A stretch of 62,046 bases of DNA from a virus. Lineage: Duplodnaviria > Caudoviricetes. A program made the translations under genes and the position numbers. Where the stretch lies: the IMG/VR virus record IMGVR_UViG_3300009181_000079, positions 1 through 62,046 of that record; one strand, written 5' to 3'. The notes under the pieces were generated by a model that did not search any database, was not told the DNA's origin, and worked only from the letters and a program-made list of their open reading frames with translations. Shown piece by piece: positions 5,851-44,505 of this stretch. Numbering within the stretch: position 1 is the stretch's first letter; each line of letters opens with the position of its first letter.

Positions 5851-7133
5851 GCCAACCCATCCAGCCATTCATCCAAAAGCAGGAAGACGCAGCCATTGGC
5901 CTGATCTCCTGCATGAGGGCCGACCTTCTCCGCGCCGGGGCTCTCGCAAAGTCAGCAGGAATCACCGCTCACCACTTCGCCTCACCACTCGACACCGTGT
6001 TCGTCTGCATGATGGGCATGTGGGCCGATAGCCAGGAGTTTGACTGGCTCGATCTCATCCAGAGAATGAGAACCCACGGAAAGCTCACCCGGGACGGCGA
6101 GAAAGAGAGCCTCAAGGCCGCAATCTACGCCGACACGCTCATCCACACCGCCCCGTCTCACATCAACGCCCTCCTGGAGTGCGCAGCAGCCCGCAGGATG
6201 CACGAGATTGGCTCCAGACTCATGGCGAGAGCCTTTGACCTCTCCGAGCCCACCACGGAGCTTCTGGACGAGGTGCGCGACCAACTTTCTGGAGTGACCA
6301 CTCGACCCGTAGAGAACAAGACAGGGATCAAGGGGTTTGTTACGGAGGCGATCGCAGCCATCACCAGCAAGCTCAATGGAGATAATGAGGATCACGAAAC
6401 CATCGAACTCGGACTCGGGCTCGATCGCGCTGCTGGCCCATTCTACCGCTCAGATCTGGTGATCATCGCCGGAGAGACCAAGCGCGGCAAGTCGGCCCTC
6501 GCCGGGAACATCGTGGAGAACGTAGCCGCAGCCGGAAAAGCCGTCGCCCTGTTCTCTCTGGAGATGTCTGGTCGCCAGAACGCAGAGCGTATGCTCGCAA
6601 GCCAGGCTGGAGTGAACATCCGCAGCCTCAAGATGGACGGACCGGTGCCACGCGACATCTTCGACAAGGGACCCAGCGAATTTGAGCGCCTCACCAAGGC
6701 CGCAGCCAGAATCGCACAGTGGAACATCCAAATCTTCGAGAAGACTAAGAAGATCGACGCCATCGTGGCTGAGATGCACCGGATGAAGGCAACCACAGGT
6801 CTCGATCTCGCAGTCGTTGATTACGCCCAGCTCACCCGTGGGATCCGGAATGACGGAGACAACCGGGAGCGCGAGGTGGCCAGCATTTCCGGAATGCTCA
6901 AGGAAGCTGCCAGCGCATGTAACTGCTTGGTCATCCTTTTGAGCCAGCTCAATGAACACGGGAAGCTCCGCGAGTCACGCGCGCTCGGTCAAGACGCCAA
7001 CTGCGTGCTTGCAATCGAGGAGGATGGGAATGGTCGCAAGATCAGCGTCATCGCAGCCCGCTCCGCGCCAGGCAGCGAAATCCCGATCAAGTGGGAGCCT
7101 CAATACACACGATTCTCGGAGGTATCAGAATGA
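5847..7133 (+). CDS. dnaB: replicative DNA helicase, DnaB family
   Basis: IIAGETKRGKS Walker A, FSLEMS, VVDYAQL, LLSQLN, LRESRALGQDA; likely start ATG 5847 overlapping the upstream stop. Confidence 0.92.
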   Translation: MSQPIQPFIQKQEDAAIGLISCMRADLLRAGALAKSAGITAHHFASPLDTVFVCMMGMWADSQEFDWLDLIQRMRTHGKLTRDGEKESLKAAIYADTLIHTAPSHINALLECAAARRMHEIGSRLMARAFDLSEPTTELLDEVRDQLSGVTTRPVENKTGIKGFVTEAIAAITSKLNGDNEDHETIELGLGLDRAAGPFYRSDLVIIAGETKRGKSALAGNIVENVAAAGKAVALFSLEMSGRQNAERMLASQAGVNIRSLKMDGPVPRDIFDKGPSEFERLTKAAARIAQWNIQIFEKTKKIDAIVAEMHRMKATTGLDLAVVDYAQLTRGIRNDGDNREREVASISGMLKEAASACNCLVILLSQLNEHGKLRESRALGQDANCVLAIEEDGNGRKISVIAARSAPGSEIPIKWEPQYTRFSEVSE

Positions 7134-7366
7134 CCCACCTCGATAAAATCCGGGACGAGTTCATCGAGATGGTCCACGACTCATTGGAAGAGAAAGACCG
7201 AGGCCCAGGAACCCCGTTTGACGACTGGAAGAAGATGTTCAACCGGGTCGCATCCCACAAGCAAGCGGTCCCAGAGCTGGCATACCAGCAATGCGAAGAA
7301 CTCTTTGCGAAACTACCACCACGGAAGAATAGTGCTCGACTTCCAGAGATCGAATTTACAGAGTAG
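7130..7366 (+). CDS. hypothetical protein
   Basis: ATG overlaps the dnaB stop codon. Confidence 0.55.
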   Translation: MTHLDKIRDEFIEMVHDSLEEKDRGPGTPFDDWKKMFNRVASHKQAVPELAYQQCEELFAKLPPRKNSARLPEIEFTE

Positions 7367-7386
7367 GTGACATCACGCTCCCAAGC

Positions 7387-7935
7387 ATGAAATCCAAACC
7401 AACCAAATCCAAACTCACCATACCCGACCTGCTTACGGAGATCGTCCGTTCAATCACCAAGGGATCTGAGACACCGTTCGTGGAATACGACGAGGAGCAG
7501 CGAATCATCAGCTTCCGGGTCTCACCGCAGGACCACGGGCGATGTGTAGGAAAGCAAGGCAACGTCATCGCCAGCATCTCTCGCATCATCTGGCTCGCCA
7601 GCGTCATTCAGGAGCTCAGCCCGGTCGCAGTGAAGCTACTTGAGCCTGATGGCCCACGTAAGATGAACGCCAGCCTACCTGTCCTGTTCGATCCGAAGTG
7701 GAACCGGAAGGCAATCGGAAAGCTGGTTGAGGACATCATCGAATCCATCGTCCCGACCTCCGCATGGATCATCGAGGAGAAGTCCGAGACCACAGCCACC
7801 GTCACCATCCGCATCGAGGAATATCTCCAGCGTGCGCTGATGGATCCTCCATTCGAGCTGTCCCTTTCCAACGTCCTCCGCGCTGCCGGCATGGCTCAGG
7901 GTGTGAACCTCAACCTAAAACTGGAATGGGTGTAG
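7387..7935 (+). CDS. KH-domain RNA-binding protein, KhpA-like, with C-terminal extension
   Basis: RVSPQDHGRCVGKQGNVIASI matches the KhpA pattern V..D.G.VIGK.G..I.AI, including the GxxG loop. Confidence 0.75.
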   Translation: MKSKPTKSKLTIPDLLTEIVRSITKGSETPFVEYDEEQRIISFRVSPQDHGRCVGKQGNVIASISRIIWLASVIQELSPVAVKLLEPDGPRKMNASLPVLFDPKWNRKAIGKLVEDIIESIVPTSAWIIEEKSETTATVTIRIEEYLQRALMDPPFELSLSNVLRAAGMAQGVNLNLKLEWV

Positions 7936-18702: not shown

Positions 18703-20220
18703 TTAGTTATTCCCGGCGCCCTTGATGGCCATTTTCCGGATGCTTGCTATATCCAGGGTCTTCTTCGTGGTGAAGTATCCCGGATAGTTCACGGAGAGGT
18801 ATTTACCGTCAGCCTCTTTCCGCATCTTGTCCAGCCCGTCACCCATGGATGCAACCACAGGACTGATGAACTGGGCCGCCTCGGTGAGCGGGATACCGAA
18901 CTCCCACGCAATCTCCGAGCAGCGCTCTATCTCTGCGCCCGTCCAGCCATTACAGACAGGCAGCTCGCCAGTGACTCCGAACTTGTTCATGTAGAAGTCC
19001 CAGATTGGTTTCTGCTGAGCTTCCGTGAGAACATCGAAGAAGAAGATGGTGCCGAAGCGTCTCTTCATCTGCGGAGCGATGTCCTCCATGCTGTTCGTGG
19101 TGCCGATGAACAGCACCCGGTTCCCGAAGCGATTCCAGAGCGTCCCTACGGCCGCCCTGATCATTCGCTCGGAGTCCGACACGATGCCACCCTTCATCTC
19201 GCCCTGGTCCCAGTTGATGAACATGGCCTTACACGCATCGGCGATTGCACCGCCGAGCTGAGTCTTGCCTGTCCCTGCGACACCGTTGAAGATGCCGCCG
19301 CGCCAGCCATAGTTCTGCATGGCACCAAGCATGACCGACCGAGCATCACGGTTGATGCCGTTCGAGTCACCCTGACCTGCGGACTGGTCGCCCATCTCAT
19401 CAATGAGCACCACAGCCAGCGGGCACAGTTTGCCGCCAGCCTTCATCCTGCCCCACTTCTTGCCCTGCTCCAGGCCGGCAAGTTGGTCGAGGGTCATCTT
19501 GTTCTCAATGACGCTCAAGCCTGCCGTGGCGTTGACCGCCGCGATAGACCCGCTCCTCAAGATATTGATGTTGAAGCCGCTCTTGCTTGCTGCTGCGGAG
19601 CATAACTGCTCAACACCAAACGAACTCAGACCTCGAAGGGTATCCGATACCTCGGACAGATCCTCCTTGGATGGCTCCCCGATCTTCGATGCCCGCGCAA
19701 TGTTTTTGGCGATCTGGATGCGTTCCTCGTCACCTGGGGGTGGCGATACGATCACCTCGAAGTCATTCCCGATCTCCGCGTTCGCTACGAACTTCGGACA
19801 CAGGAATACCAAGTGCCTGTTGCTCGACTTGAACTCATCCCGACAGTTGCGGATGCACTGGATATACAGCGCCCGAACCGTCTCATCCCTGTGTTGCAAC
19901 AGCAGATGGATGTCGTCAATCACCAGGATCGACTTCGGGGGCAGCAGGTCGAGCGCTCTCTGTAAGCACTCTTCCAACTTCGCCGTGGTCAGTGCCGGCT
20001 CTTTGTCGCTGTTCATGACGCCAGAGGCCAGCGCCCCCGCGTCATTGATTCCGATCGCACCACGAGCCATATCGTGATGCAGAAGGGCCATCCCATTCGC
20101 TTTCTCCTTGATCCCATCATTGATGTCAGACAGCGTGTATTGGTAGTTGTCTGTCTCTACAACGATGAACGGGAAGGCCCGACTCACACGCTGTAGGAGC
20201 GTTTCGATGTGTTTCTTCAT
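18703..20220 (-). CDS. AAA+ ATPase, Ycf46-like, with rearranged motif order
   Basis: degenerate N-terminal AAA domain; VVLIDE, GVAGTGKT, VLFIGTTN, RRF..IFFFD, GWTGAEIE. Confidence 0.85.
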   Translation of the reverse strand: MKKHIETLLQRVSRAFPFIVVETDNYQYTLSDINDGIKEKANGMALLHHDMARGAIGINDAGALASGVMNSDKEPALTTAKLEECLQRALDLLPPKSILVIDDIHLLLQHRDETVRALYIQCIRNCRDEFKSSNRHLVFLCPKFVANAEIGNDFEVIVSPPPGDEERIQIAKNIARASKIGEPSKEDLSEVSDTLRGLSSFGVEQLCSAAASKSGFNINILRSGSIAAVNATAGLSVIENKMTLDQLAGLEQGKKWGRMKAGGKLCPLAVVLIDEMGDQSAGQGDSNGINRDARSVMLGAMQNYGWRGGIFNGVAGTGKTQLGGAIADACKAMFINWDQGEMKGGIVSDSERMIRAAVGTLWNRFGNRVLFIGTTNSMEDIAPQMKRRFGTIFFFDVLTEAQQKPIWDFYMNKFGVTGELPVCNGWTGAEIERCSEIAWEFGIPLTEAAQFISPVVASMGDGLDKMRKEADGKYLSVNYPGYFTTKKTLDIASIRKMAIKGAGNN

Positions 20221-31266: not shown

Positions 31267-31527
31267 ATGGCCTACGCCGACCATCTCCTATCCTACCGAT
31301 CCGAATCATCTGAAGACCTCATAGCAGAGAAGGCCGCACTCAAGGCACAGCGCACGATCTACTCAGCACAGGGGATGGGCACAAAATCCATGCAACGGGA
31401 TCTGCGTCTTCTGGAGGAGAGGTTGCAGGCTATCAACTTTGTCTTGAGGGAGAGAAACCCTCCTGTCATCGTGCCGCCTGTGACTAACTTTGGCGTAGGA
31501 ATCTCTGACTTCAGCACCGTCCGATGA
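31267..31527 (+). CDS. head-to-tail joining protein (gpW-like position)
   Basis: small helical/beta-hairpin protein immediately before a lambda-family portal. Confidence 0.55.
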   Translation: MAYADHLLSYRSESSEDLIAEKAALKAQRTIYSAQGMGTKSMQRDLRLLEERLQAINFVLRERNPPVIVPPVTNFGVGISDFSTVR

Positions 31528-33362
31528 GCGACAATTTGATCAAGCTCTATGATGGTCGGGGGAATGTCGTCACTGAATTTCACCCCAAGTTCAACGATGT
31601 CCGCAGGGAGATCCAATTCGGCGCGCAGTATAACCCCGCCCCTGAGAGAAGGGGCTCAAGTGGCGGAATCTATGGCAACGCGGCTCCCGAGACATGGGCT
31701 CGCAATCGGGATAGGCTTCAGTCCATGTGGGACGCGAGAGATCAATGTCAATTTAGTTGGGTTGGCGGTATGCTCGGTCGCGTCTGCCGCTACGTGGTAG
31801 GCAGGCTTCACTGCAAGTCTGAGACTCAAGACCCGCAAATTGACGCAGCCTACGACGACTACTTCCACTCCTGGTGTGGAGACGAACGGAACGAGGACGG
31901 CACAACCAACTGCGACATCACGGGCAGGGCAAGGTTCCTCAAGATGGTTCAACAGGCTTTCCTTGCTCACCTTATTGACGGCGACCATGGCTTTATCGAG
32001 GTAGCTCCAGAGTTCTCACCAACCGGAAGATACTGCCTTCAAGCAATCGAGGCGGACTGCATCGGATCCCCGAATGAACAGACTACTTTTGAGGACTATA
32101 TCGGAGGCGTGAAGATTGATGTCAATACGGGCCGGGTTCTCTACTATCGAATCTTCAAGCGCACACGCACACAGCAATATGTGAAGCTCGCAGAGGTGGA
32201 GCCAGCGAACTTCATTCATCTCAATGACTTTGACCGCTCGGGGGAATACCGGGGCCGCACCAAGCTCCTGCGCGCCCTGAACGATCTCCGAGACATCCGT
32301 GAAGCACTCACAGCCGAGATGGTCAGCGCCAAGACTCAGGCCCAGTGGTCAGCACTCATCGGAGTCAAGGACCCGTTCTCCAACCAAGGCCCGGCGGCCT
32401 GGTCGGGAAAGACCGCAGACGGCACCCCAACTCAAGACGCACAGTGGGGCAAGATTCTAAAGATGGCAGAGGGCGAGCAGTTCCAGATGCTCACCCCTTC
32501 CGCCCGTCCTTCAGGTGCTTTCATGAACCTGATTGACACCCTGATTCGCAAGCTGGCCATCAGCCTGGAACTCAGCTACGGTATGGTGTGGAACCTCGCC
32601 ACCCTCGGCGGAGCCAGCCAGCGCATCGAGACAGAAGCCGACAATCTCAAGATTCAGACCTGGCAGGATCTCCTGAAGGACTACATCCTCACACGGGTCC
32701 GGAACAAAGTCATCGCGGAAGGCATCGCCACTCAGATGCTACCACCTCATCCAGCATGGAAGAGGCACTCTTGGAGATTTGGTAAGCAGATCACCGCAGA
32801 CTTGGGCTACGAGATGGAAAGCGACCTGAAGGCCGTAGGCGCCGGCATTGCCGAGATCGAGCATGTGGTGGCCAAGCACACCGGAAAGAGCTTCAGCGAG
32901 GTCTGTGCGAGCAACACGGCGGCAGCCAATACAGCTATCAACAACGCATCGCAGGCCGGCATCCCCGTCGAAGTCACAGCCCGCGGAATGTTCCCGGACA
33001 TCACAGCCCAGCGCGCGAACTTCCTGCAAAGCCAGGCGCCACCTCCACCACCCGCAAGCCCCGTCAGCATCGGCGTCCTCGGGGACAAGGGCATCAAGCC
33101 TCTCATCGACATCATGGAGAAAGTCGGAGACGGAACGATCGACAGGGAATCCGCCATCAACGCCATCATCGAAATCTACAGCCAGCCAGGCAACGAGCTC
33201 TCCCGCCAGGACGCGGAGAAGCTCATACCAGAGGAGCCGGAAGAGGAAGACCTCAATCGGTCGGCGGGGCTCACACCTGAAGGCAAGCACGCGCCAGTGG
33301 TCGCAGGTCCGAAGCCCAGCAGCAACGGCAGTAAGCCCAAGACGAACGGAGCACGCAAATGA
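31524..33362 (+). CDS. portal protein, lambda family
   Basis: CDITGR..F, IDGDHG, LQAIEADCI, GGVKID..GR...Y.I, IHL.DFDR.GEYRG. Confidence 0.9.
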   Translation: MSDNLIKLYDGRGNVVTEFHPKFNDVRREIQFGAQYNPAPERRGSSGGIYGNAAPETWARNRDRLQSMWDARDQCQFSWVGGMLGRVCRYVVGRLHCKSETQDPQIDAAYDDYFHSWCGDERNEDGTTNCDITGRARFLKMVQQAFLAHLIDGDHGFIEVAPEFSPTGRYCLQAIEADCIGSPNEQTTFEDYIGGVKIDVNTGRVLYYRIFKRTRTQQYVKLAEVEPANFIHLNDFDRSGEYRGRTKLLRALNDLRDIREALTAEMVSAKTQAQWSALIGVKDPFSNQGPAAWSGKTADGTPTQDAQWGKILKMAEGEQFQMLTPSARPSGAFMNLIDTLIRKLAISLELSYGMVWNLATLGGASQRIETEADNLKIQTWQDLLKDYILTRVRNKVIAEGIATQMLPPHPAWKRHSWRFGKQITADLGYEMESDLKAVGAGIAEIEHVVAKHTGKSFSEVCASNTAAANTAINNASQAGIPVEVTARGMFPDITAQRANFLQSQAPPPPPASPVSIGVLGDKGIKPLIDIMEKVGDGTIDRESAINAIIEIYSQPGNELSRQDAEKLIPEEPEEEDLNRSAGLTPEGKHAPVVAGPKPSSNGSKPKTNGARK

Positions 33363-36300
33363 AGAACCCGCTTTTCAAGTCAGGCATCAAATCCGGAACC
33401 CACCACCTCGGAGGAGTGGGTGAGATAAAGCGCATCCGCCTGCGCGACATCCACAGCCCACAGCAAACCGTGGACGAGAAGAAGGTGAGGAAGCTTGCCC
33501 GCTTCACGAAGAACATGCCAGGCACGCCCACGGTGAGCCACGCAGGCCGCGGGAAGTATGTCCTCAAGGACGGCAACCACCGGGTCAACGCAGCGCTCAG
33601 GCAGGGCAAGCGGGTGATCGATGTCCGGGTTCAGAAGTTCTCCTCCCGCTCTCCTCTCATCCAGTTCATGCACTGCACAGCCGAAGCCGTCCCACGAGCT
33701 GACATCCCGCGCAAGATTGTGAAAAGAAAGATCACCAAAAAGCCAATCCAGTTCGCTGCATTTGATATGTATAGAACCTGGATGGACCCGATCGACAAGA
33801 GTAGCCCGGGCCGAAAGAACCGCAGGGCGCTTCAGGATGCCGCCGGCAGGTCCGTTGATCTACCGGCCAGCAAGCCGCCCCGAGTTTCATCCGGAGGGAT
33901 TGGGCGTTCACTGTCCCAGGAGCGCATCGAACAAAAGATACAACAACGCGCGGCTAGAGAAGTCGCGGACCAGATGGAAGGCATTCGCGATCACCCGGGC
34001 GTCGGGGCGCCCTCTACTGAGGGCGAGCTTGCTCGGCACAAGAAGGCCATGCAGGGTCCGGAGCTTTATCATCCTGAGAACGAGGCGAAGGGCTCAGTGA
34101 TCCACACGCGGAATAAGCCAGCTCCAGTGGACGCATGGAAGCACCGAGACCCGAAGGCGTGGTTGGTGGCTAACAAGGCTCAAGGGAGACACGCCGATCT
34201 CGATCCGGAGAACATGACCGCCATGCAGAAGGCGTCCATGAGAAAGGAGGCACAAGCCTTCCGCGATACTGAAGCGAAGACGCTCCGATCTCTCCGTGGT
34301 CGGATACAGGAGATGCGCAAGGCCGTAAGCCCTGGATTCAAGCCATCAGAAAATTTCAAGCCGAGCTCTGGGTCTAACAATATCGTCGGCGGGATGAAGC
34401 CAGAGAAGTGGGAGCCAAAAGGAACACTGAGGATCGGCCCTGGACTCAGCACTCCTGAGATGGTCCATGGCGCGATCTCTCATGTGGATCAAAAAGCAGG
34501 AGAACGCATATCCACGGTGAAGAGCAGACTCGCCCGCATGGTCGGAACCTTAAGGAACAGGGTGTCTGAGACAACCGGTATTCCGGAAGGACCGGCACGC
34601 CATGCTCAGGTGAAGGGATACCTCGAAGGAATGATTCCATCGGAAGGCCCTACAGCAATGGACCTCACGAAGAAGATTGATCCAACTCGATCCGAGCGAA
34701 TCCAGAAAGCGATGAATTGGAAACCGGAGCGGGTCGAGAAGTCACGCCGCGCAATCGCGAAGCTGGAGCACCAGGCAAACAGCGCTGAATATCTCTCACA
34801 GGTCCGGCAGGGCGTCGTAAAGAAAATGGTAGCCGCCCCAAGAGTATCAACCCTTCCTGACGGTTACGTTCCAGGCGCCGCCCTCAAGAAGCTCGGGCGC
34901 ATCGCTGGCGCAACCGCCCTGGTCGGCGCAGGAGCCTACGGCATCCGGAAATATCTGAACCGCAATAAGGAGGAGCCAAAGCAGTTGAAGATGTCAGCGC
35001 GCGGACGGATCATTCAGTTCGTGGTCCCTCGTCAGGTTAAGCAAATAAGGAAGGCGATCCTGACCGCGCGCGAGCCAGCAAAGCGATGGAGGGCTTCTTC
35101 CTTTGCTGATCATGTGATGTCCGAATCTGAGAAAAGAGGAGGAACCGCACAGCGATTCTTCCCGAATCTTTACTCGAACATGCCACCCAAGACCTACAAT
35201 CTGCACGGGCGACCAGTGGACGCTCAGCGAATGGCCCGAGAGCAGAGCAGGGCCGGCCACGAGGAGAAGCTCGTCCAGCGACTTGTTGAGCAAGGGAAGA
35301 TCGTCCGCACTGACAAGCCGATTCCGAAAGAAGCATTCACCAACTACCCAGTCAATGCCATCGGAAAGCTGCCATCCGTGGAAGAGGTGATGTCCCAGGA
35401 TATTGTCGGCGATGTATCAAGCCGGGTTTCCAATCAATTCGCAAAGCACGCAGGGACCGCTCGTGCCGTAGTCTCAGAGGAGAGACGGATGCCGCTCGCA
35501 ATCATCCAGCACACTCCATCTCCATTGGCTGATAAGATCGCCGCAACTGAGCGGCGCGCAGTCGAAGCAGAGGGTCTCGTAGGCGGGCTCAGGGCGTCAG
35601 TAGCATCCTCAAAGAAAGCAGCGTCGGAGTCCGCCTCGCGCCACGCTGAGGAGATGAAGCGCCAGATCTTTCGCGGCGACCGCAACCTTTTGATCGGAGC
35701 CGGGGCCGCCGGGGCCGCCGGGATTGGCGGGGGATACCTACTTGGCCGCAAGAAGAAGGAAGTGCAGTTCAGCGAGAAGAAGCGCGAACTTACACCATGG
35801 CAGAAGGTCGGCATCTCGGCCGCAGCCAGCGGGGCGGTCCTCGGGGCTATTCCAGCATTCAGACATGGATCGACTTTCGGGGGAGTCGCCAGGTCCATCG
35901 CGACCGGGGCTGGTATTGGGTCTGTCGTCGGAGGCGGCGGGACATACATTGGCACTAAAATTCTAGGCGAACCGAGAAAGGACGATCCGATCGGCACAAC
36001 TAAGCGGGCCGCTGTAGGCGGGGCTATCGCCGGCCTTGGTCTCGGTGCCGCAGGGGCCATCGCTCTCCGTAGGGGGCATTTCAAGGGCGCTATGAATGAC
36101 TGGAGGCCCGTCACATTTATCAGGCGCACCGCAGCGCCAGTGGCCATTGCCACAGGAGCCGGAGCCGGAGCCCTTATTGCGGGTAGCCACGCAGCAGACG
36201 AGGGGCAGCAGGTTGATACGATGCGCAATCTCAAGAAGTCCATCCGCATGTCGTCCAAGCTCAAGCCAATCAGGTTCGCCATCGAAGCCCCGCTCTCGGG

Positions 36301-37741
36301 TAAGCTGGCCGCAGATCGTTATCGCAAGAAAATCGCCGATGATGATTTCGATCGCCGTGATGCAAATGTGCTTCGCTCCTCCGGGGCGGGGGCAGTCCTT
36401 GGCGGAATGTTGGGAGGCAGGCGCGGGGCTCTTGCCGGCGCCGGGCTTGGGGCAGCAAGCGTTCTTGGAATACGTCAGGCCACTAATAGCGGCAAGGATA
36501 TGTATGGCGAGCGTTCGCGCGGAGCCAAGCAAGCTGAGAGCCTTCCATGGAAGATTGCCGCCATCGGAGCGGCGGGACTTAGTGGGCGCAGTATTTACAA
36601 TAAGCTGAAATCACTTCGCGGCACCACCCTGAGCCGCAAGGGAGGGCTGATCGAATTTCGCGATTGGTCTGACAAGTGGGTTGGCGACAATGTGAACTAC
36701 ACGGCCCGAGGCGAAGACGTATCCCGATGGGGCGGAAGGGGCGGAAGGCTCGTCCGCGACATCGGGCGCAAGGCTCGCGGTGAGGAGCACAAGGATTCCC
36801 GCGGCAGGGTCCAGACCCCTGAGTGGCAAAAGCCATGGGCTAAGAAGGCCATGCTCATTGGCGGTGTCGGACTGGCGCTCGGAGCGGGCGTCCTTACACG
36901 CGGAAAGCTCAAGGGGCTCGCCCAGGAAGCCAAGGCATCGTATGGGGTCAATCAGGTCCCAAGGCCCGCTGCAAGATTTGCGCACAACGTCATGGAGGGC
37001 AACGTGTCTCATTCGATCAAGAACCGCATCGGGGCCTTTGTTCCAGGACCAGTGAAGCGCGGCTATCAAAAGGTGAAGGGATTCTTCGGCAACGTCGCTC
37101 GCGATGTAGAGCACAAGGCCGCCAGCAAGCTGGACAAGATCAACGAAGCCGTGGAGAACGAAAGCAATATGGTCGTCACCGCGAAGGGTAAAATCCACAA
37201 CGCGCGCAAGGTGAATGCAGCAGTTGCAGAGCAACAAGATGCTGTCGATAAAGCCAATGCCATAGCAAAGAGAGGGCAGGCCAATATCCAAGTGATGCGC
37301 TCCCCAGAGGAGCAGGCAGCAGAGGAAATTCTCAATACTATCCATGGGAAGCCACGCACATTTCTTTCTTCCAATGAAAAGCCGATCCGATTCGACGCTT
37401 GGGACATCAAGGAGAGGAGCCGCAATACCGCTATTGTCCGCACCCCGGACTACGACGAGACCCGCAAGAAACGCGAACACAAAAGGATGTCGAAATCCAC
37501 CGGATACCTTCTGCGTGATCTCGGCATTGCAGCGGCGGGCGGGATTGGATTATGGGCGGGGCACAGGCGCGGATTTGCGAAAGCCGCCAGCACCCGTCCT
37601 TTGATTTCTCCGACCGCTCGCGCCATCGAGGAGGCCCCTCCTCAGATGTGGATCCCGCAATCTGTCCAGCCAATCCGGTCCTATCAATCCATGGACCAAA
37701 TCATCCATCTCAATAACCAACTAGACAACCTGTTGACATAA
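33359..37741 (+). CDS. modular head-associated polyprotein 1 (ParB/Srx-like first module, Gly-zipper modules)
   Basis: KDGNHRV module; repeated S[AS]R/K...I[QER]F linkers; several Gly/Ala-rich hydrophobic segments flanked by K/R. Confidence 0.7.
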   Translation: MKNPLFKSGIKSGTHHLGGVGEIKRIRLRDIHSPQQTVDEKKVRKLARFTKNMPGTPTVSHAGRGKYVLKDGNHRVNAALRQGKRVIDVRVQKFSSRSPLIQFMHCTAEAVPRADIPRKIVKRKITKKPIQFAAFDMYRTWMDPIDKSSPGRKNRRALQDAAGRSVDLPASKPPRVSSGGIGRSLSQERIEQKIQQRAAREVADQMEGIRDHPGVGAPSTEGELARHKKAMQGPELYHPENEAKGSVIHTRNKPAPVDAWKHRDPKAWLVANKAQGRHADLDPENMTAMQKASMRKEAQAFRDTEAKTLRSLRGRIQEMRKAVSPGFKPSENFKPSSGSNNIVGGMKPEKWEPKGTLRIGPGLSTPEMVHGAISHVDQKAGERISTVKSRLARMVGTLRNRVSETTGIPEGPARHAQVKGYLEGMIPSEGPTAMDLTKKIDPTRSERIQKAMNWKPERVEKSRRAIAKLEHQANSAEYLSQVRQGVVKKMVAAPRVSTLPDGYVPGAALKKLGRIAGATALVGAGAYGIRKYLNRNKEEPKQLKMSARGRIIQFVVPRQVKQIRKAILTAREPAKRWRASSFADHVMSESEKRGGTAQRFFPNLYSNMPPKTYNLHGRPVDAQRMAREQSRAGHEEKLVQRLVEQGKIVRTDKPIPKEAFTNYPVNAIGKLPSVEEVMSQDIVGDVSSRVSNQFAKHAGTARAVVSEERRMPLAIIQHTPSPLADKIAATERRAVEAEGLVGGLRASVASSKKAASESASRHAEEMKRQIFRGDRNLLIGAGAAGAAGIGGGYLLGRKKKEVQFSEKKRELTPWQKVGISAAASGAVLGAIPAFRHGSTFGGVARSIATGAGIGSVVGGGGTYIGTKILGEPRKDDPIGTTKRAAVGGAIAGLGLGAAGAIALRRGHFKGAMNDWRPVTFIRRTAAPVAIATGAGAGALIAGSHAADEGQQVDTMRNLKKSIRMSSKLKPIRFAIEAPLSGKLAADRYRKKIADDDFDRRDANVLRSSGAGAVLGGMLGGRRGALAGAGLGAASVLGIRQATNSGKDMYGERSRGAKQAESLPWKIAAIGAAGLSGRSIYNKLKSLRGTTLSRKGGLIEFRDWSDKWVGDNVNYTARGEDVSRWGGRGGRLVRDIGRKARGEEHKDSRGRVQTPEWQKPWAKKAMLIGGVGLALGAGVLTRGKLKGLAQEAKASYGVNQVPRPAARFAHNVMEGNVSHSIKNRIGAFVPGPVKRGYQKVKGFFGNVARDVEHKAASKLDKINEAVENESNMVVTAKGKIHNARKVNAAVAEQQDAVDKANAIAKRGQANIQVMRSPEEQAAEEILNTIHGKPRTFLSSNEKPIRFDAWDIKERSRNTAIVRTPDYDETRKKREHKRMSKSTGYLLRDLGIAAAGGIGLWAGHRRGFAKAASTRPLISPTARAIEEAPPQMWIPQSVQPIRSYQSMDQIIHLNNQLDNLLT

Positions 37742-37752
37742 CCACAAACACC

Positions 37753-39096
37753 ATGAACACACGCCTAATCCAACTGAACAACACCGCCTCCCGCTGCCTC
37801 GAATTTCGCAGCTACGATGAAGATGAATCACATCTCCTGCGAAACACAGCCATCGGCGCAGGAGGACTTGCGGCGGCCGGAGCAGGCGCGGCATACTACC
37901 GCGGAGGTCAAATCCCTCGCCCATCGGCAGTGATGTCCGGAGGTTCAACTTTCGGGAACAGGCTCAGCGACGTTGGAACACGAATGAGGGTTGGTGCGGC
38001 ACAACTCGGCGATGATGCTGCTGGCCTTGGTCGGCGCGCTGGGCAATATGCCAGCGGAGCCGGTGGAGCGATTGGCGGAATGGGCGCAGAATACAGAAGC
38101 CTGCGCTCCGCGCAAGGCGGGCTTGGTCATCCTGTCACCCGGGCCGGCGCTGGTCGCATGAGCTCGCTCTGGGGCGCAGTCAAGGGAGCAGCCAGCAAGA
38201 TCAAGGGCCTTCGGTTTGATGCAATGGGTAACGTCATTGAATTTCGCAGCTACGATGACGAGTCTCATCTCGGTCGCAACGCCGCCATCGGTGCTTTATT
38301 AGCTGGCGCTGGCGTGGGTGGTGTGTATGCAAGGGGGGCGCGCTACAATGCCGCGAACAACTGGGAGGGTCGCATGGAGGGGTCTAAATTTGGATTTGGA
38401 GAAAATATGCGCTCTGGTGTCACTGGGCTTCGCGATGACGCCACGCGCGCTGGGCGATATGCCAAGAACGTAGGCTCTGGAATTGCTGAAGGAGCCGGGC
38501 ATTATGGCGACCTTCGCGCAGGCGCGAAAGAGGGACTCGGCCTGGGTCGCGGCGCTTCAGCCAAGGGAGCGCTCAAGAGGCTGGTCCAAAACGTAAGGAA
38601 CATCCGCTATCAGTCCAGCTCTCCATTGATTGCCCTCAACGCAAAGCTGGATAGTGTCATTGAATTTGAAGATCGGCCCAAGGCTGGATATTGGAGCAAC
38701 AACATGGCGGCAACCAGGGCGATGCGGGCCAGCGATAAGGGGGTTGGTCTAGTCCTGGCAGACCCCGAACTGATTGGCAACAGAGTGACAAAATCACTCG
38801 GACACTCTTTGGCGGGCGCTGGCATTGGAGCCGGAGCCGGAGCTGGCATCGGAGCGCTGGTTGCGAAAAATATGCCAAGAGGCAGAGGCGCGGGCATTGG
38901 GGCGATTATTGGCGGGCTGACCGGCGCTGGTATCGGAGATGTTCATGGCATGTATTCCGCGGATAAAGCTTACCTTGCAAAGAAGGGCATCACAATGCGC
39001 GGAGGCGGCTTTTTGGCTCCCAAGCTTTCCAAAGAGGCGCAACAGAAATACTTGCACCAAGATTACGCCGGAGGCGGCTGGAAGCCCAGTAAATAA
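37753..39096 (+). CDS. modular head-associated polyprotein 2 (three Gly-zipper modules)
   Basis: LEF/IEF linkers; duplicated EFRSYD(E)DESHL.RN.AIGA unit. Confidence 0.7.
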   Translation: MNTRLIQLNNTASRCLEFRSYDEDESHLLRNTAIGAGGLAAAGAGAAYYRGGQIPRPSAVMSGGSTFGNRLSDVGTRMRVGAAQLGDDAAGLGRRAGQYASGAGGAIGGMGAEYRSLRSAQGGLGHPVTRAGAGRMSSLWGAVKGAASKIKGLRFDAMGNVIEFRSYDDESHLGRNAAIGALLAGAGVGGVYARGARYNAANNWEGRMEGSKFGFGENMRSGVTGLRDDATRAGRYAKNVGSGIAEGAGHYGDLRAGAKEGLGLGRGASAKGALKRLVQNVRNIRYQSSSPLIALNAKLDSVIEFEDRPKAGYWSNNMAATRAMRASDKGVGLVLADPELIGNRVTKSLGHSLAGAGIGAGAGAGIGALVAKNMPRGRGAGIGAIIGGLTGAGIGDVHGMYSADKAYLAKKGITMRGGGFLAPKLSKEAQQKYLHQDYAGGGWKPSK

Positions 39097-39113
39097 GGCA
39101 ATCCATAAAAGCC

Positions 39114-41039
39114 ATGTCAGCCAGGCGCGATCTTGAATTTATTATAAGCCTCTCTGACGAGGAGCCCGACAATCATCTTCTCCGAAACGCCGCCATGCTT
39201 TCCGGCATAGGCGCGATTGGAATAATCGGGCACAAAGGCGGAAGGCTGATGGATACTATCCGCAAGTCCTACAAGGCTGGCGCCAAAGAAATCGTAGGAC
39301 GCACTGGCCCAGCGGTGGAAGCGGTCAGGGCAGCGGCGGACAACATCCAGAACGCAACCGCATGGACATCGGACGTTGGTAGGCTTTGGGGCGCAGTGAA
39401 TGGCCCGCAGGCTGTGCAGAGGGCGGTCAGGGGCGCGAAGCACATCAAGGAGTTTCCAGCGATGGTGCGTGAGGGCATGAATGATCCGAACTCAGCAAGC
39501 TCGCTTGGTGGAAGAATTGGTAGGCGCCTCGGTAAAGCATGGAGATCGGCCGCCGAATCATTCAACTCTGCTCCGGCAGGAATGCCAGTTCACATGTCCG
39601 CCCGCGAGGAGCTTAATGAGATCCGGTTTGGGTATAGCTGGTCAGCCGATCCATTGAAGGTAGAGGCGCAGGGTGGATGGGATGTCGCCAAAGCGAGAAT
39701 CGAAACCGACGAAGGCGGCTTCATGGATGAGAATATCGCCCGGAATAAAAAGCGAGGAGTCTTGAACGCAATCAAGCGACTCAACGGGCGTCCGAGATTG
39801 AATCCATTCCTATACCACGACAAGGCAGGACATTCAGCGGCCTTCAAAAAGGCGAACCCTCACTGGGAGACCAATAGCACCGGCATGTTCTCCGCCCGCG
39901 ATCAACTGGATGAGATCCGGTTTGGGATTATGGGCGATCTCTGGAAAGGGATTCCCGGCAAGACATGGGCTGGAAGCATCGGTCGTGCCGCTGGCGCTGG
40001 GGCTCTACAAGGAGGAGCTGTCGGAGCTGGAATTGGCGCAATAGGCGGCGGCATTAGCGGAGCGATGAGCGATGATCCAAACAAGGGATTCATCAGCGGG
40101 GCCGCAGGTGGAGCACTCAAGGGTGGCGCAATCGGAGCCGGGCTTGGCGCAGCGGGATACGCTGGGATTCACGCAGCAGCCCCAGCAATTAGCCGATGGG
40201 GCGGGAAGCACCTTCCGAGCAGCATTGGCCCAGAAGGGGCGAAACTTGGGAGGGACCTCAACTCACTCAACCACCAGATCAGGGCCAGGGGATACAAGGG
40301 AAGACTAGGGGACGCAGGGAAGTATAACACACCTACATTATTAGCCAGGCACTCACTTGACTCCATTATTCAGATGTCCATGGAAGAGCCCACAGAACGC
40401 ACCAAGCGCGCGTCGAAGGGGAACTGGGCGGCAAAGATCGACCCAAAGGTAGTGCGCGGGGCCATTAGCGACAAGGAATCGAGGAGGCTTGCGCGCGAGG
40501 CTATTGAGAAAATCGCAAAGATCGGGAAGACGGCGCTCTCCGCCCGCGATCAGCTCAACACCATCCTCTTCAAAAGCATCGCCCGAGACGATCTTCAGAT
40601 GCCGGATGCGTGGATATGGAATCAGGAGGGCGGTAAATTCGGACCCGCAAACCATGGGCAAGTGCGCGCCGCCATGGCGGACCCGGATAACTACGCAGGC
40701 CCGCAGATCATCCGCAAAGTGAGCTACGGCGGACCAAGGATGCGAGTCAATCTGAAGAATGGAAAGAAAACCGTGCGTGACAGGTCCGGGGCAGAGAGAG
40801 AGCTGAGCGCCCGAGATCAACTAAATCTCATCACCTTCGGCGTTGACGCCAACGGCAAGCTCCACAACTCCAAGGGAGAGTTCGGAGGGGATAACGACGC
40901 TGTAGCGCATCCCGAAGCTATGAGAATGACATACCAGCGCGCAGCGGGCCTCGGGGCCACTGCCGGGGCTGCTGGAGTGGCTGGCGGCATGGGAATGAAA
41001 GCTCTCATCGAAAAACTCAAGGGACTGAAGCGCAAATGA
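39114..41039 (+). CDS. modular head-associated polyprotein 3
   Basis: SAREELNEIRFG, SARDQLDEIRFG, SARDQLNTILFK and SARDQLNLITFG linkers. Confidence 0.7.
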   Translation: MSARRDLEFIISLSDEEPDNHLLRNAAMLSGIGAIGIIGHKGGRLMDTIRKSYKAGAKEIVGRTGPAVEAVRAAADNIQNATAWTSDVGRLWGAVNGPQAVQRAVRGAKHIKEFPAMVREGMNDPNSASSLGGRIGRRLGKAWRSAAESFNSAPAGMPVHMSAREELNEIRFGYSWSADPLKVEAQGGWDVAKARIETDEGGFMDENIARNKKRGVLNAIKRLNGRPRLNPFLYHDKAGHSAAFKKANPHWETNSTGMFSARDQLDEIRFGIMGDLWKGIPGKTWAGSIGRAAGAGALQGGAVGAGIGAIGGGISGAMSDDPNKGFISGAAGGALKGGAIGAGLGAAGYAGIHAAAPAISRWGGKHLPSSIGPEGAKLGRDLNSLNHQIRARGYKGRLGDAGKYNTPTLLARHSLDSIIQMSMEEPTERTKRASKGNWAAKIDPKVVRGAISDKESRRLAREAIEKIAKIGKTALSARDQLNTILFKSIARDDLQMPDAWIWNQEGGKFGPANHGQVRAAMADPDNYAGPQIIRKVSYGGPRMRVNLKNGKKTVRDRSGAERELSARDQLNLITFGVDANGKLHNSKGEFGGDNDAVAHPEAMRMTYQRAAGLGATAGAAGVAGGMGMKALIEKLKGLKRK

Positions 41040-41329
41040 ACCGCCTCGTCCTGCTCAACCAGAAGCTCGACAGGCTGATTGAGTTCTCTCCGTCATGGAC
41101 GCGCAAGGCCGGCAAGTCAGACTCCGGAGGGCTGAATGAAAAGGGCCGCAAATCTTACGAACGAGCGAATCCAGGATCAAACCTCAAAGCACCGCAGCCC
41201 GAGGGAGGCTCACGCAGGGACTCCTTCTGCGCTCGGATGCGAGGGATGAAGAAGAAGCTCACCAGCGCGAAAACAGCAAACGACCCGGACAGCAGGATCA
41301 ATAAAAGCCTGCGCGCCTGGAAGTGCTGA
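41036..41329 (+). CDS. DUF6321-like basic phage protein with LIEF leader
   Basis: WTRKAGK..SGGLNEKGRKSYERANPGSNLKAP...RRDSFCARMRGMKKKLTSAKTANDPDSRINKSLRAWKC. Confidence 0.75.
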   Translation: MNRLVLLNQKLDRLIEFSPSWTRKAGKSDSGGLNEKGRKSYERANPGSNLKAPQPEGGSRRDSFCARMRGMKKKLTSAKTANDPDSRINKSLRAWKC

Positions 41330-41365
41330 GCGCGAACACCTTCGATTGACATAGGAGACTTCGGC

Positions 41366-42703
41366 ATGAGCCAAGTCATCCGATTCCACAACGCAAAAGC
41401 CTTCACCGGACTCACTGGACAAGTGAGATTTGATGAGGCGAAGATCCTCGGCGTGTCCCTTATCACTTCCAATCTGGAAGCGGAGGGACACAACCTGTTT
41501 GTGGACAACACCACCCTGACGCAGCTTCATGCGCTCGGCAAAGAGATGGGTCAGATACCCGTCACACAGAACCACGAAGGAGGGATCGAGGAGGTCAATG
41601 GCTGGATTGAAAACATTCGTTTCGATGGGGACAAACTCCGTGGTGATTGGTGCCTCCTACAGACCCACAAAGACACGCCTACGATGCTGGAGCGCGCGGA
41701 GAAACAACCCACCACATTCGGACTGTCTCTCGCCTTCAAAGGAGACCCGAAAGGAGTGCTACACATGGGCAAGCGTTGCGCTCGTGCAGAGAAGCTTTTG
41801 AGCGCAGACGTGGTGAAGCGTCCAGCAGCCAACCCTGGCGGTTTGTTCAGCGCAAAAGACACACCTTCCGTTGACAACAAGAAAATAGTCGAACTTAACA
41901 ATATGCCACAAGATCCCAACACCAATCAAGAGCCCACGATGGCTGATGTCCTCGCGCAAATCCAATCGCTCACACAGCATGTGCAGCAGTTGGGCGAAGT
42001 CCAGTCGCAAATCGTCGGACACATCAACGAGAGCACCGAGAACCAAGGCGATGAAGGTCTCACCGCTGAGCAGCTCGAACAACTCCACAACTCCAGCGAT
42101 GAGCAGCTTGCCGAACTCGGCCTGACTCGCGATGAAGTGGACGCAGCGGTTTCCGAATACAACGCCAGCGTCGAATCGCAGGGCGCAGAAGGCGAGCAAG
42201 GCGCAGAAAACGCTGAGCAGGGCCAAGGCGAAATGGCAACGGCAGGCGCAGGTATGGAAACCGGCGCACCCGGCGGGGCTACGATGATGCACGCAATGCA
42301 CCGCGAGCTCATCCAGCTCAAGGCTGAGATCAACCGCGAGAAGAACTCCAAGAAGATGGCAGCCGAGACTATCCAATTCCAGGAGGTCGAAAACAAGATT
42401 ACGCTACTCGCCGCACAGCGCGACCAGGCCATCCAGCTCGCTGAGATGGTTGTGTCCGAAAACGAAGCCCTCAATCTTCACATCAAAACCGGCACGCGCC
42501 CAGTGGCAGTCGGAGTTGATGAAGGTGTCCGCCTCTTCAGCGCCAACGGCTATGGTGAACTCCATCCGTTCCAACATCGCATCAAACAAATCATGCTGGA
42601 ATCCAAAGTGACGGAAGGCAAAGCCCTCCTGCTGGCCAGCAGAGAGAACTCCGCTCAACACGCCGACTGGCTCCAGTCCCAGGGCCGCACAATCAACGCC
42701 TAA
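41366..42703 (+). CDS. prohead protease / scaffold fusion
   Basis: GVSLIT...EGH...VD, NH, FGLS, SADVV..PAANPGGLF protease domain followed by an acidic coiled-coil scaffold; possible internal start at 41903. Confidence 0.8.
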   Translation: MSQVIRFHNAKAFTGLTGQVRFDEAKILGVSLITSNLEAEGHNLFVDNTTLTQLHALGKEMGQIPVTQNHEGGIEEVNGWIENIRFDGDKLRGDWCLLQTHKDTPTMLERAEKQPTTFGLSLAFKGDPKGVLHMGKRCARAEKLLSADVVKRPAANPGGLFSAKDTPSVDNKKIVELNNMPQDPNTNQEPTMADVLAQIQSLTQHVQQLGEVQSQIVGHINESTENQGDEGLTAEQLEQLHNSSDEQLAELGLTRDEVDAAVSEYNASVESQGAEGEQGAENAEQGQGEMATAGAGMETGAPGGATMMHAMHRELIQLKAEINREKNSKKMAAETIQFQEVENKITLLAAQRDQAIQLAEMVVSENEALNLHIKTGTRPVAVGVDEGVRLFSANGYGELHPFQHRIKQIMLESKVTEGKALLLASRENSAQHADWLQSQGRTINA

Positions 42704-42722
42704 CACTCTACACTAACAACAC

Positions 42723-43454
42723 ATGAACATCTCACCTGTTATCTCACTGCCAGTCAGCGCGGATCTCTCTTCCGGCAAAGAGTATGAATGCGTGAAGCTC
42801 ACCTCGACAGGGGTGGCTATCGCAACCAGCATCACGGATCGCATCATCGGCACATTGCTTCGCGGCAATGACGCCCCTGCTAACGGTCAATCCGCTGTCG
42901 GAATGGCCTGCGACGTGTTCCTCACCGCCGGCAACGGTCTGCACTTCGTCAAGGTCGGCAACGACACTGCGATTACGGCTGGTGACGAGCTGGAGCAAGA
43001 CGCCACTGATGGCCGCGTTGTGAAGCGCGTAGCTGGCGCAGCAGTCGGTCAGGCTGTTGATTCATGCCCCGCATCCAGTGATGGTGGAGTCATCCGGGCA
43101 ATCATGTTCCCTCCTCCACAGCAGGGCGTCCTCGGCACCGCCGGGGCTGTCACGCAGCTTACCAACGCCTCCACGGGCGTAACGGTCAACGCTCTCAGCG
43201 GAGCAATCACCACGGTCGCTCTCACGGCAGCAGCCGCAGGGGAAATCCGCTTCACGGTCACGAACAGCTTTATGGCAATCGGCGACACAGTGAGCTTCTC
43301 CACCACCTACAACGGCGGAGGCACTCCAATCATCGGATCGGCACTCAACGTGACCGCAGGAACCTTCGATGTCGTAGTCACCAACTTGCACGCCAGCGCG
43401 GCTCTTGATGCCCTCATGGTCATCAACTTCGTGATCAACAAGGCAGCCGTCTAA
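42723..43454 (+). CDS. head decoration / capsid cement protein with C-terminal extension
   Basis: ADLS...Y..VKL, AITAGDEL..DATDGR; lies between protease and capsid genes. Confidence 0.7.
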   Translation: MNISPVISLPVSADLSSGKEYECVKLTSTGVAIATSITDRIIGTLLRGNDAPANGQSAVGMACDVFLTAGNGLHFVKVGNDTAITAGDELEQDATDGRVVKRVAGAAVGQAVDSCPASSDGGVIRAIMFPPPQQGVLGTAGAVTQLTNASTGVTVNALSGAITTVALTAAAAGEIRFTVTNSFMAIGDTVSFSTTYNGGGTPIIGSALNVTAGTFDVVVTNLHASAALDALMVINFVINKAAV

Positions 43455-43482
43455 CCAATCACCACCACAATAAAACACTAAT

Positions 43483-44505
43483 ATGTTCAACACCGTTGAC
43501 TCAGTTCCAAGGACAGACATCAGCACTGCGCTGATGGAGGCTGTCGGCCAAAAGAAGCAGTTTGTCGCGCAAGCCCTCTTGCCGATTTACGACTCGCCAA
43601 CGGAAGTTGGTCGGTATCCACGCTTCCGCAAACAGGCTTCCGAGCTGCTCCGCGCAGGTCGTAGCCCTAGCGACACCACTACATTCAACAGCTCTACCAA
43701 GCGTGGTTCCACTGGCACCTACAATGAACTGACCCGCAAGTTCGAGTGGGATAGCTACCAGACCGAGGAATACGGTTTGGAAGAGCGCATCGACGACAAA
43801 GTTCGCACCCGTATGCGGAACTTCTTTGATGCGGACATGATCACAGCAGACCTGCTCATGAACTCCCTGATGCTCGACTACGAGATGGAAGTCTCGGCAA
43901 AGTTGAACACCACGGTTGGCACCGACGCCGCCGAGGGCTTCGTGCAGACCGCTGCAGGCGTGAACTACACGGAAACGCTCATTGCAACAGCGGATGTGCC
44001 GAAAGACATGAACGCAGTTATCGAGCGCCTCACATTACTCGGCACGGATCCTTCCGAGCTGACGGCAGTGATGTCTCTCACGGTTTGGAACTACCTCCGC
44101 CGCACCACGAAGCTCCAGACCTACGTGTATGGCTTCCTGAACGTGACGCAGGGTGGCTCGCAAATCACCGAGCAGATGTTTGCTCAAGCTTTCGGAATCG
44201 CCGGCCTCCTGGTCGCTCGCAAGTCCGTGGACACCGCCATGAAAGGCAAGGCCGCAAGCCTCGTGCCTGTCTGGGGCAACACCAACATCTTTGTCGGCAA
44301 ACTCGGCGAGGGAGACTTTATGAACGGCGGCGTGGGTCGCACAATCACCTGGGGCGCAGACAGCCCCGGAGGCTTGTTCACCTCTGAGCAGTATCGCGAC
44401 GAGAAGCGCCGCGGTGATATGCTCCGTGTGCGCAGCAACCGGTCGTTGAAAATCATTGACCCTACTTGCGGCCAGCTCATCGCTACGAACTACAGCGCAA
44501 GCTAA
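43483..44505 (+). CDS. major capsid protein (HK97 fold, gpE-like)
   Basis: 340 aa, position, Y.TEEYGLEERIDD, GRTITW, YRDEKRRGDMLRVR. Confidence 0.85.
   Translation: MFNTVDSVPRTDISTALMEAVGQKKQFVAQALLPIYDSPTEVGRYPRFRKQASELLRAGRSPSDTTTFNSSTKRGSTGTYNELTRKFEWDSYQTEEYGLEERIDDKVRTRMRNFFDADMITADLLMNSLMLDYEMEVSAKLNTTVGTDAAEGFVQTAAGVNYTETLIATADVPKDMNAVIERLTLLGTDPSELTAVMSLTVWNYLRRTTKLQTYVYGFLNVTQGGSQITEQMFAQAFGIAGLLVARKSVDTAMKGKAASLVPVWGNTNIFVGKLGEGDFMNGGVGRTITWGADSPGGLFTSEQYRDEKRRGDMLRVRSNRSLKIIDPTCGQLIATNYSAS

Follow-up and report, generated by a model that had tools for sequence, protein, structure and literature searches.

Four adjacent genes of the virus record IMGVR_UViG_3300009181_000079 (a whole, linear IMG/VR record of 62,046 bases, hereafter the window) have in common a short linker peptide that recurs within and at the ends of their products. 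These genes, g33359, g37753, g39114 and g41036, lie between the portal gene and gene 41366, a putative protease-scaffold. The linker motif is confined to them, persists in relatives while the modules around it are swapped, and is placed at domain borders and protein ends. We give roughly even chances to the reading that the four genes encode polyvalent internal or ejection proteins that are packaged and bear a repeated targeting and processing signal similar to the capsid targeting sequence (CTS) of phage T4. From this arrangement we infer packaging, cleavage, the protease responsible and the ejection of the four proteins.

The initial annotation of this region, made from the sequence alone, quoted 15 strings as copies of one recurring linker. 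All 15 are present in the proteins as quoted, and a shared signal is indeed recognizable; it is, however, not one linker but three gene-specific forms, which have S-[AS]-[RK]…[ILV]-x-[FLM] in common. Type 1, from the g39114 family, reads h-S-A-R-[DE]-[EQ]-L-[DNE]-x-I-(x)-x-[FLM] (50 distinct instances, h being hydrophobic). Type 2 is found in g37753, in g41036 and at the tail of g33359 and reads (S-[AS]-[RK]-x3)-L-h-x-L-[NS]-x-x-L-D-x-h-h-x-[FL]. Type 3, from the g33359 family, reads h-S-S-[KR]-x-x-h-I-[QR]-F (58 distinct instances), the residue before it being M in 30, L in 17 and F in 8. Each form, searched as a hidden Markov model (HMM) or as a regular expression (regex), matches only its own gene or genes in the window.

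That the motif should be confined to head genes, a check proposed with the initial annotation, was borne out by the original regex, by two HMMs and by the type-2 regex. Against the open reading frames (ORFs) of the window, obtained by greedy ORF calling, the original regex gave 6 matches in the four proteins (2,645 amino acids, aa) and 0 in the other 80 ORFs (17,067 aa), and in 1000 shuffles of those four sequences the count never exceeded 1. The type-1 HMM matched six times in g39114 and the type-3 HMM four times in g33359, with no match in the other 83 ORFs or elsewhere in the window, respectively, and none in reversed sequences. The type-2 regex matched g37753 (2) and g41036 (1) only and likewise found nothing in reversed sequences. 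For the tripeptide [IL][QER]F alone, the counts are 14 in the four proteins and 15 in the other ORFs (5.29 vs 0.88 per 1000 aa); because it is also found elsewhere, the quoted strings KKPIQF, KEVQF, GNVIEF and SRCLEF are not individually significant. Motif-like strings outside the four genes are MSQVIRF at the start of 41366, an IQF at residue 30 of the portal, and NSARLPEIEFTE at the C-terminus of a 91-aa ORF (7091-7366, + strand) beside a DnaB-like helicase gene. The last of these is the sole match outside the head cluster to the loose pattern S[AS][RK]…[ILV].F; the ORF has no type-1 HMM match at score >=4 and nothing in Pfam, and its motif-likeness is probably due to chance.

An unbiased linker sample was drawn from the region upstream of the conserved C-terminal module, which was located by a motif-independent anchor. 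The anchor finds this module in 21 proteins, and a linker lies immediately upstream in 20 of them. Among these 20 distinct linkers the A is kept in 17 and the R, L and I in 18 each, with no conservation before position -12. The final residue is L in 8, M in 7 and F in 5, so that F is not invariant in relatives.

The lineage is rare. Neither g39114 nor the capsid protein had a match in the phage collection, and scans of viral contigs for relatives by sequence search found none; a word-indexed search gave 15 homologs of g39114, and an exhaustive search gave 36 of 1.84 billion representatives at E <=0.001. In a set of 73 homologs (66,199 aa), the type-1 HMM finds 99 matches in 30 proteins and the type-3 HMM 44 matches in 16, both with 0 in reversed sequences. 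Of the 25 proteins outside training (P0054-P0078), type-1 matches occur in 14, and in 11 of these they number two or more.

When the 30 type-1 proteins are divided at the linkers, 128 modules result, which fall into 65 clusters (19 recurrent, 46 singletons) under the strict settings that were used; a looser run merged 65 modules into one cluster via Gly/Ala-rich segments. The C-terminal module, m1, is last in 23 of the 30 proteins, is never placed elsewhere and stands behind 19 different neighbours; for module m2, 7 kinds of neighbour are seen on the left and 4 on the right. Together with the 20 of 21 anchored proteins, these arrangements bear out in relatives the expectation that linkers stay while modules swap. 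The description of the modules as unrelated is correct in part, as Gly-zipper units recur: the unit EF-RSYD(E)DESHL-RN-AIGAGG…, an acidic patch followed by a Gly-zipper, is seen at 37801-37853 and 38239-38288 in g37753 and at 39173-39196 at the start of g39114, and is also visible as DNA repeats D3 and D6. Gly-zipper segments in many modules suggest membrane-active ejection proteins.

The family of g33359 (27 homologs) shows the same exchange. Its members have a ParB-like start in 10 of 27 cases and a type-2 tail in 13 of 27, and inserted modules include an SNF2 helicase (P0027), an R2K ATP-grasp (P0028) and DUF6321 (P0031). Linkers flank the known domains and never interrupt them, as is the case for a ferritin-like domain (residues 272-383 of P0015), R2K ATP-grasp (1764-1861 of P0028), SNF2 (118-491 of P0027) and DUF6321; the ferritin/Dps-like module of P0007 and P0015 matches PF00210 at E 0.003, below the cut-off. 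Among the swappable units are also modules with HExxH (mostly HE[AR]GH), of which there are 15 sites in 13 of the 73 homologs (P0002, P0003, P0005, P0011, P0012, P0017, P0025, P0029, P0033, P0040, P0041, P0056 and P0063). In the freshwater relative L006, a 196-aa ORF with a zincin-like HEYGH motif (6851-7441, - strand) lies between the large-protein gene and the g37753-like gene; it has no counterpart in the window. The only relative among 185,579 species genomes is a 5.3-kb contig (JAYTIO010000522.1, L009) in a metagenome-assembled genome (MAG) titled Pedosphaera sp., in which the capsid protein is 58% identical and gene order and linkers are the same. Its binning in that MAG points, though only weakly, to a verrucomicrobial host.

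Linkers are also placed where they join nothing. Sixteen of the 30 type-1 proteins open with a linker right behind the initiator Met (M-[ST]-[AP]-R-x-x-L-x-x-I-I-x-F). The small gene of L004, a close marine relative, retains the leader MNKLIRLNQKLDRIIQF, but its body is different and not DUF6321. Type-2 copies are N-terminal in 5 cases, internal in 14 and C-terminal in 6, some proteins having them at both ends, and P0058, P0076 and P0077 likewise carry a linker at each end. A motif that leads differing bodies without joining anything must be a signal, and since the linker also opens and closes proteins, its placement in the sequences indicates that it is a signal and not a passive spacer.

DUF6321 illustrates this placement most directly. 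It is a separate gene in the window (g41036, with the stop at …AWKC and a PF19846 match of 80 bits vs a cut-off of 28.5) and an internal module in relatives, where the linker fills the inter-domain gap exactly: …AWNC is followed directly by SAR… in P0010, P0012, P0013, P0016 and the L006 ORF, and DUF6321 begins immediately behind a linker (…IIQL followed by AAWTRK). The domain is C-terminal in two translated phage proteins as well, and it is widespread in marine cyanophages and pelagiphages (522 phage records); in Synechococcus phage Sf-FS3 (L003, 1351-3261) it forms the end of a 636-aa protein that the record lists as structural. The DUF6321 proteins of cyanophages and pelagiphages have no SAR-type linker, hence the linker is not a property of DUF6321. 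The name DUF6321 was not found in the literature searched.

Within the window, the products differ in composition. In g33359 a ParB-like N-terminal module, a lead only (ESM features 0.93, yet PF02195 without match), is accompanied by Gly-rich hydrophobic modules and by a type-2 linker as C-terminal tail. In g37753 a type-2 leader is combined with two acidic/HL-RN-AIGAGG Gly-zipper units and a C-terminal YMGG-like Gly-zipper; its PF13441 match (E 4.6e-5) is below the cut-off. The last module of g39114 is the family-wide conserved C-terminal module (40839-41036, + strand), which consists of GVDANGKLHNSKGEFGG…, a Gly/Ala-rich hydrophobic stretch and the basic amphipathic tail KALIEKLKGLKRK; it could be a true anchor or a membrane-inserting end. 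Linkers bound 6-8 units in g33359 and 6 in g39114, and the total for the four genes is about 16-18, which makes the initial estimate of 15-20 units a reasonable one.

In the mechanism that we propose, each protein would be a string of autonomous modules, each led by a conserved amphipathic signal of 9-20 residues that would act like the T4 CTS, only used repeatedly. The signal would dock the polyprotein to the scaffold/protease core during procapsid formation and would, in addition, designate the points at which the neighbouring putative protease, 41366, releases one module from the next, with the cut at the boundary between h and S and/or behind the final hydrophobic residue. The outcome would be some 16-18 peptides inside the capsid. 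Indirect pointers to head packing are the location of the genes, flanked by those for the portal and the putative protease, and the fact that one DUF6321 protein is annotated as structural.

Gene 41366 is, judged by its sequence, a probable and still putative prohead protease fused to a scaffold. Its residues 1-185 were assigned to Peptidase_S77, the T4 gp21 family, by 25 of 30 ESM Atlas feature matches (score 0.95-0.96), and its four homologs (50-93% identity) have invariant H70 and S121 (…NHEGG…, FG[LF]SLAF). All four retain a start ending in …I-x-F, as in the MSQVIRF of the window, and a linker-like S-[AV]-[KP]-D… after GLF at the coiled-coil border, where the window has GLF followed by SAKD…IVEL. 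The protease label that this gene had been given was not confirmed by sequence profiles, and the sole positive lead is to S77 and not to a lambda-type enzyme. An AlphaFold2 model of the protease domain from 3 alignment rows reached a predicted local distance difference test (pLDDT) value of 31.7, too poor for a fold search, and a complex prediction of 41366 (3-row alignment) with g41036 (score 0.01, mark 0.32) speaks neither for nor against binding.

Several points weigh against the proposed mechanism. Cleavage by the Glu rule of gp21/gp175-type proteases does not agree with the linkers: ahead of the final F, type-3 linkers usually have Q or R (24 and 17 of 58, against E in 2), and an A-R-E reading fits only 24 of 50 type-1 linkers, 20 of which have D. 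One enzyme would need to accept three linker forms, and copies at the C-terminus or at both ends would be more easily understood as docking helices than as cleavage sites. As a regex supplied the HMM seeds, the invariance of S, L and I in the type-1 and type-3 tables is partly circular. An AlphaFold2 model of g39114 from a 16-row alignment (pLDDT 41.3) is too poor to judge independent module folding, and both the presence of the four proteins in the virion and their cutting are matters that we infer. As for 41366, its identity as a protease comes from language-model features, which amount to a lead. Pfam, PHROGs (E 0.01 and E 10) and PDB sequences (E 10) gave nothing, and neither the S77 (PF03420, E up to 10) nor the S80 models matched it. 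PF04586 (Peptidase_S78) had no match in the window at E up to 10, while control genomes match. A tblastn search against phages at E 10 was empty, and hhalign of a 3-row alignment of the 41366 protease against the gp21 homolog of Synechococcus phage Sf-FS3 gave a probability of 0.2.

It is possible, albeit rather unlikely, that the linkers serve for docking only, with amphipathic linker helices that attach to a repeated partner (the scaffold, the inside of the capsid or the portal) or associate with one another in an inner core, and with proteins that stay full length, uncut at the linkers. This would be in keeping with linkers that are N-terminal, internal and C-terminal, in some proteins at both ends, with the linker that closes the large protein in 13 of 27 homologs, with the six g39114 linkers, which are all at least partly helical in the low-confidence AlphaFold model, and with the fact that no Glu-type cleavage rule fits. 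However, DUF6321 is both a free gene (in the window) and an internal unit (in P0012, P0013, P0016 and L006), from which it follows that covalent linkage is not needed for function. Moreover, the hydrophobic residue before S (M, L or F in 55 of 58 type-3 linkers) and the linker-like element at the protease/scaffold junction of 41366 both resemble a protease site, and the analysis yielded no docking partner.

We regard it as improbable that the linkers are sites for a different protease, whether a module-borne zincin-like peptidase or a host enzyme such as Prp. The 15 HExxH sites that 13 of the 73 homologs contain would agree with the former, as would the proposal of Iyer et al. (2017) that peptidase domains process polyvalent proteins (PMC5512222). 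Yet no ORF of the window has HExxH, and its linkers are nevertheless kept, which excludes a module-borne zincin for the window. Prp, for its part, cuts between F and A (PMC5744158), and many window linkers end in F, but the last linker residue varies between F, L and M, and the Prp family (PF04327) has no match in the window. In the Pedosphaera MAG, the only candidate host genome and one with a weak link, the best Prp match has E 0.49 and is not above the cut-off; L27 was likewise not found in this incomplete MAG, which makes the Prp result a tentative one for the host. The linker core SAR..L..I is probably unlike the L27 leader. No match to g33359 was found in the same MAG.

In the internal-protein locus of T-even phages, conserved leader DNA may aid exchange. 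A role of the linkers mainly as recombination joints, where junction sequences permit module exchange and the peptide has little biochemical function, would accord with the extensive shuffling and with two type-1 linker-coding stretches of the window that are 86% identical over 36 nucleotides, but it is very improbable, given that conservation is at the peptide level (synonymous codon differences in 23/51 same-residue codon pairs for type 1 and 22/43 for type 3, about half), that type-3 linkers are only 48% identical at the DNA level, too little for homologous recombination, that the amino acids are conserved across relatives with capsid proteins only 58% identical, and that N- and C-terminal copies are no junctions.

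Returning to the packaged and processed polyproteins, a further and rather doubtful possibility can be put forward, namely that the linker would be a portable and repeatable tag for loading into, and release within, an HK97-fold capsid. A module behind a linker would be pulled into the procapsid and freed by the prohead protease. Each genome would in this way field a plug-and-play array of some 16-18 peptides, for which 65 or more module families would be the source and which would be injected along with the phage DNA. Order or stoichiometry would be determined by the three linker forms, and the terminal copies would let the products of separate genes attach in series to one docking site. A linker of this kind was not found described in the main texts of the literature searched. 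If the linker is indeed a loading tag and release site, it would unite the T4 CTS with polyvalent proteins and would be, to our knowledge, the first case of a phage in which a single repeated signal carries a whole series of cargo modules. In that case it would account for the dismantling of those polyvalent proteins that lack a peptidase domain, and it would provide a defined tag of 10-12 residues by which foreign proteins could be brought into a small HK97-type capsid, as well as a sequence signature for spotting injected proteins in uncultured phages.

The features of the head region are listed in Table 1. The gene order, from ORF calls and homology, is portal, g33359, g37753, g39114, g41036, 41366, 42723 and capsid gene, with about 8 kb between the portal and gene 41366. 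The 42723 protein is conserved in relatives L004, L007 and L009.

Table 1. Head-region features of the window and the basis on which each was assigned
Feature	Positions	Strand	Basis
Portal protein, lambda family	31524..33362	+	PF05136 E 8.4e-31; phrog_21 portal
Modular protein g33359, 1460 aa	33359..37741	+	ORF; 27 mosaic homologs, 1019-2456 aa
Type-3 linker SSRSPLIQF, aa 95-103, F before	33641..33667	+	g33359
Type-3 linker SARGRIIQF, aa 546-554, M before	34994..35020	+	g33359
Type-3 linker SSKLKPIRF, aa 965-973, M before	36251..36277	+	g33359
Type-3-like linker SRKGGLIEF, aa 1092-1100	36632..36658	+	g33359; regex match, HMM score <4
Type-3 linker SSNEKPIRF, aa 1337-1345, L before	37367..37393	+	g33359
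C-terminal tail QSMDQIIHLNNQLDNLLT, type-2 linker closing g33359	37685..37738	+	like tail in 13/27 homologs
Protein g37753, 447 aa	37753..39096	+	ORF; 6 homologs besides itself
Type-2 N-terminal leader NTRLIQLNNTASRCLEF	37756..37806	+	g37753
Type-2 internal linker YQSSSPLIALNAKLDSVIEF	38608..38667	+	g37753
Protein g39114, 641 aa, six linker-bounded modules	39114..41039	+	ORF, linker HMM, homologs
Type-1 N-terminal leader SARRDLEFIISL	39117..39152	+	g39114
Type-1 linker SAREELNEIRF	39597..39629	+	g39114; HMM 17.5 bits
Type-1 linker SARDQLDEIRF	39891..39923	+	g39114; HMM 18.1 bits
Degenerate type-1 linker ARHSLDSIIQMS	40344..40379	+	g39114; HMM 11.8 bits
Type-1 linker SARDQLNTILF	40539..40571	+	g39114; HMM 20.7 bits
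Type-1 linker SARDQLNLITF, abutting the conserved C-terminal module	40806..40838	+	g39114; HMM 19.5 bits
Protein g41036, 97 aa: type-2 leader NRLVLLNQKLDRLIEF (41039-41086) and DUF6321 ending …AWKC	41036..41329	+	PF19846 E 2e-22
Putative prohead protease (~aa 1-160) fused to coiled-coil scaffold-like region, 445 aa	41366..42703	+	ESM features
Linker-like SAKDTPSVDNKKIVEL at 41366 domain junction	41849-41896	+	4 homologs
Head-module protein, 243 aa	42723..43454	+	phrog_18251 (unknown function); decoration-like by position
Major capsid protein	43483..44505	+	phrog_1005 major head protein, E 2.6e-29

The record is about 89% complete according to CheckV, and no tRNA genes were found in its 62,046 bases. 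A lambda-type gpA terminase (PF05876 and PF20454 matches) is located at 712-2571, a DnaB-like helicase at 5766-7133 and, on the minus strand, an AAA ATPase at 18703-20220. The terminase thus lies 29 kb from the portal (31524), with replication genes in between, and the linear record is therefore probably a permuted or differently opened genome. The lambda-family portal (PF05136) and the gpA terminase are those of a lambda-type head module; a gpC-type (S49) protease was not seen beside the portal, and 41366, some 8 kb away, is without any Pfam family at E up to 0.01. The portal N-terminus (31524-31640, + strand) begins with MSDNLIKLYDGRGNVVTEFHPKFNDVRREIQFG…, which gives two h-x-F endings and brings to mind the N-terminal trimming of portals in other phages. 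A Shine-Dalgarno-like motif is present 4-16 nucleotides upstream in only 2 of 8 head-gene starts (31524-43483), which hints at a host that relies little on such sequences. Internal translation starts at linker Met codons were considered and are uninformative for the same reason, since only 2 of the 8 real head-gene starts have a motif of this kind.

The initial annotation knew of no such polyprotein array in a lambda-type head module. Precedents do exist in concept, both in the CTS carried by diverse T4 internal proteins and in polyvalent proteins. One parallel is found in staphylococcal phage 80alpha, in which Prp removes leaders of 13-14 residues, ending in Phe, that are common to non-homologous head proteins, and trims L27 and the 80alpha head proteins after Phe (PMC5744158). 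The 80alpha system differs from the window in that Prp is a host protease of Firmicutes, acts on N-termini only and has capsid and scaffold proteins as substrates; no Prp match was obtained in the window. In the giant phages, phiKZ gp175 and SPN3US gp245, which are gp21-related, cut many internal or ejection proteins at short repeated motifs, and SPN3US sites prefer Ser at P1' (PMC10052503). A cut before the linker Ser would likewise put Ser at P1'. The giant-phage sites, in contrast, are A-X-E, serve to remove N-terminal propeptides and not to separate modules, and are not embedded in a long conserved linker.

T4 internal proteins have only the 10-residue CTS in common, which guides diverse cargo into the scaffolding core and which gp21 cleaves off (PMC3012670, PMC9026906); the termini of gp21 itself, the N-terminal region included, carry their own cleavage logo (PMC9026906), and proteases of this family cut after Glu in L/I-X-E or A-X-E (PMC9026906, PMC10052503). 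As with the CTS of IPI-III and Alt, the window and its relatives have a short conserved leader on otherwise unrelated proteins and exchangeable putative cargo (16 of 30 proteins with leaders, a different body in L004, and 65 module clusters with one linker). Gene 41366, whose ESM features point to the gp21 family, parallels gp21 in carrying linker-like elements of its own, one at the N-terminal end and one where the protease and scaffold regions meet. The signal of the window differs from the CTS in being repeated within polyproteins of 450-2400 aa and in having three forms, and the L/I-X-E site that T4 has at the leader end is not found in the linkers, with E before the final F in 2 of 58 against Q in 24 and R in 17. 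Furthermore, the phage has a 62-kb genome with lambda-type portal and terminase and is not a T4-like myovirus.

Polyvalent proteins, finally, resemble the four products in being large multi-domain proteins among virion genes with extensive mosaicism. For these, Iyer, Burroughs, Anand, de Souza and Aravind (2017) predicted a proteolytic release of domains and assigned the processing to peptidase domains within the polyvalent protein, the word "linker" being absent from the text (PMC5512222). Polyvalent polypeptides have 2 to 15 domains and belong to late or virion genes, and the unit counts of g33359 and g39114 fall within this range. Relatives carry ParB-like, SNF2 helicase, ATP-grasp and zincin-like modules; among effector domains the window has the ParB-like lead, and the zincin-like peptidase, common but not universal in polyvalent proteins, has no HExxH counterpart in any of its ORFs. 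What sets the window proteins apart from polyvalent proteins is that a conserved inter-module peptide is their defining feature.

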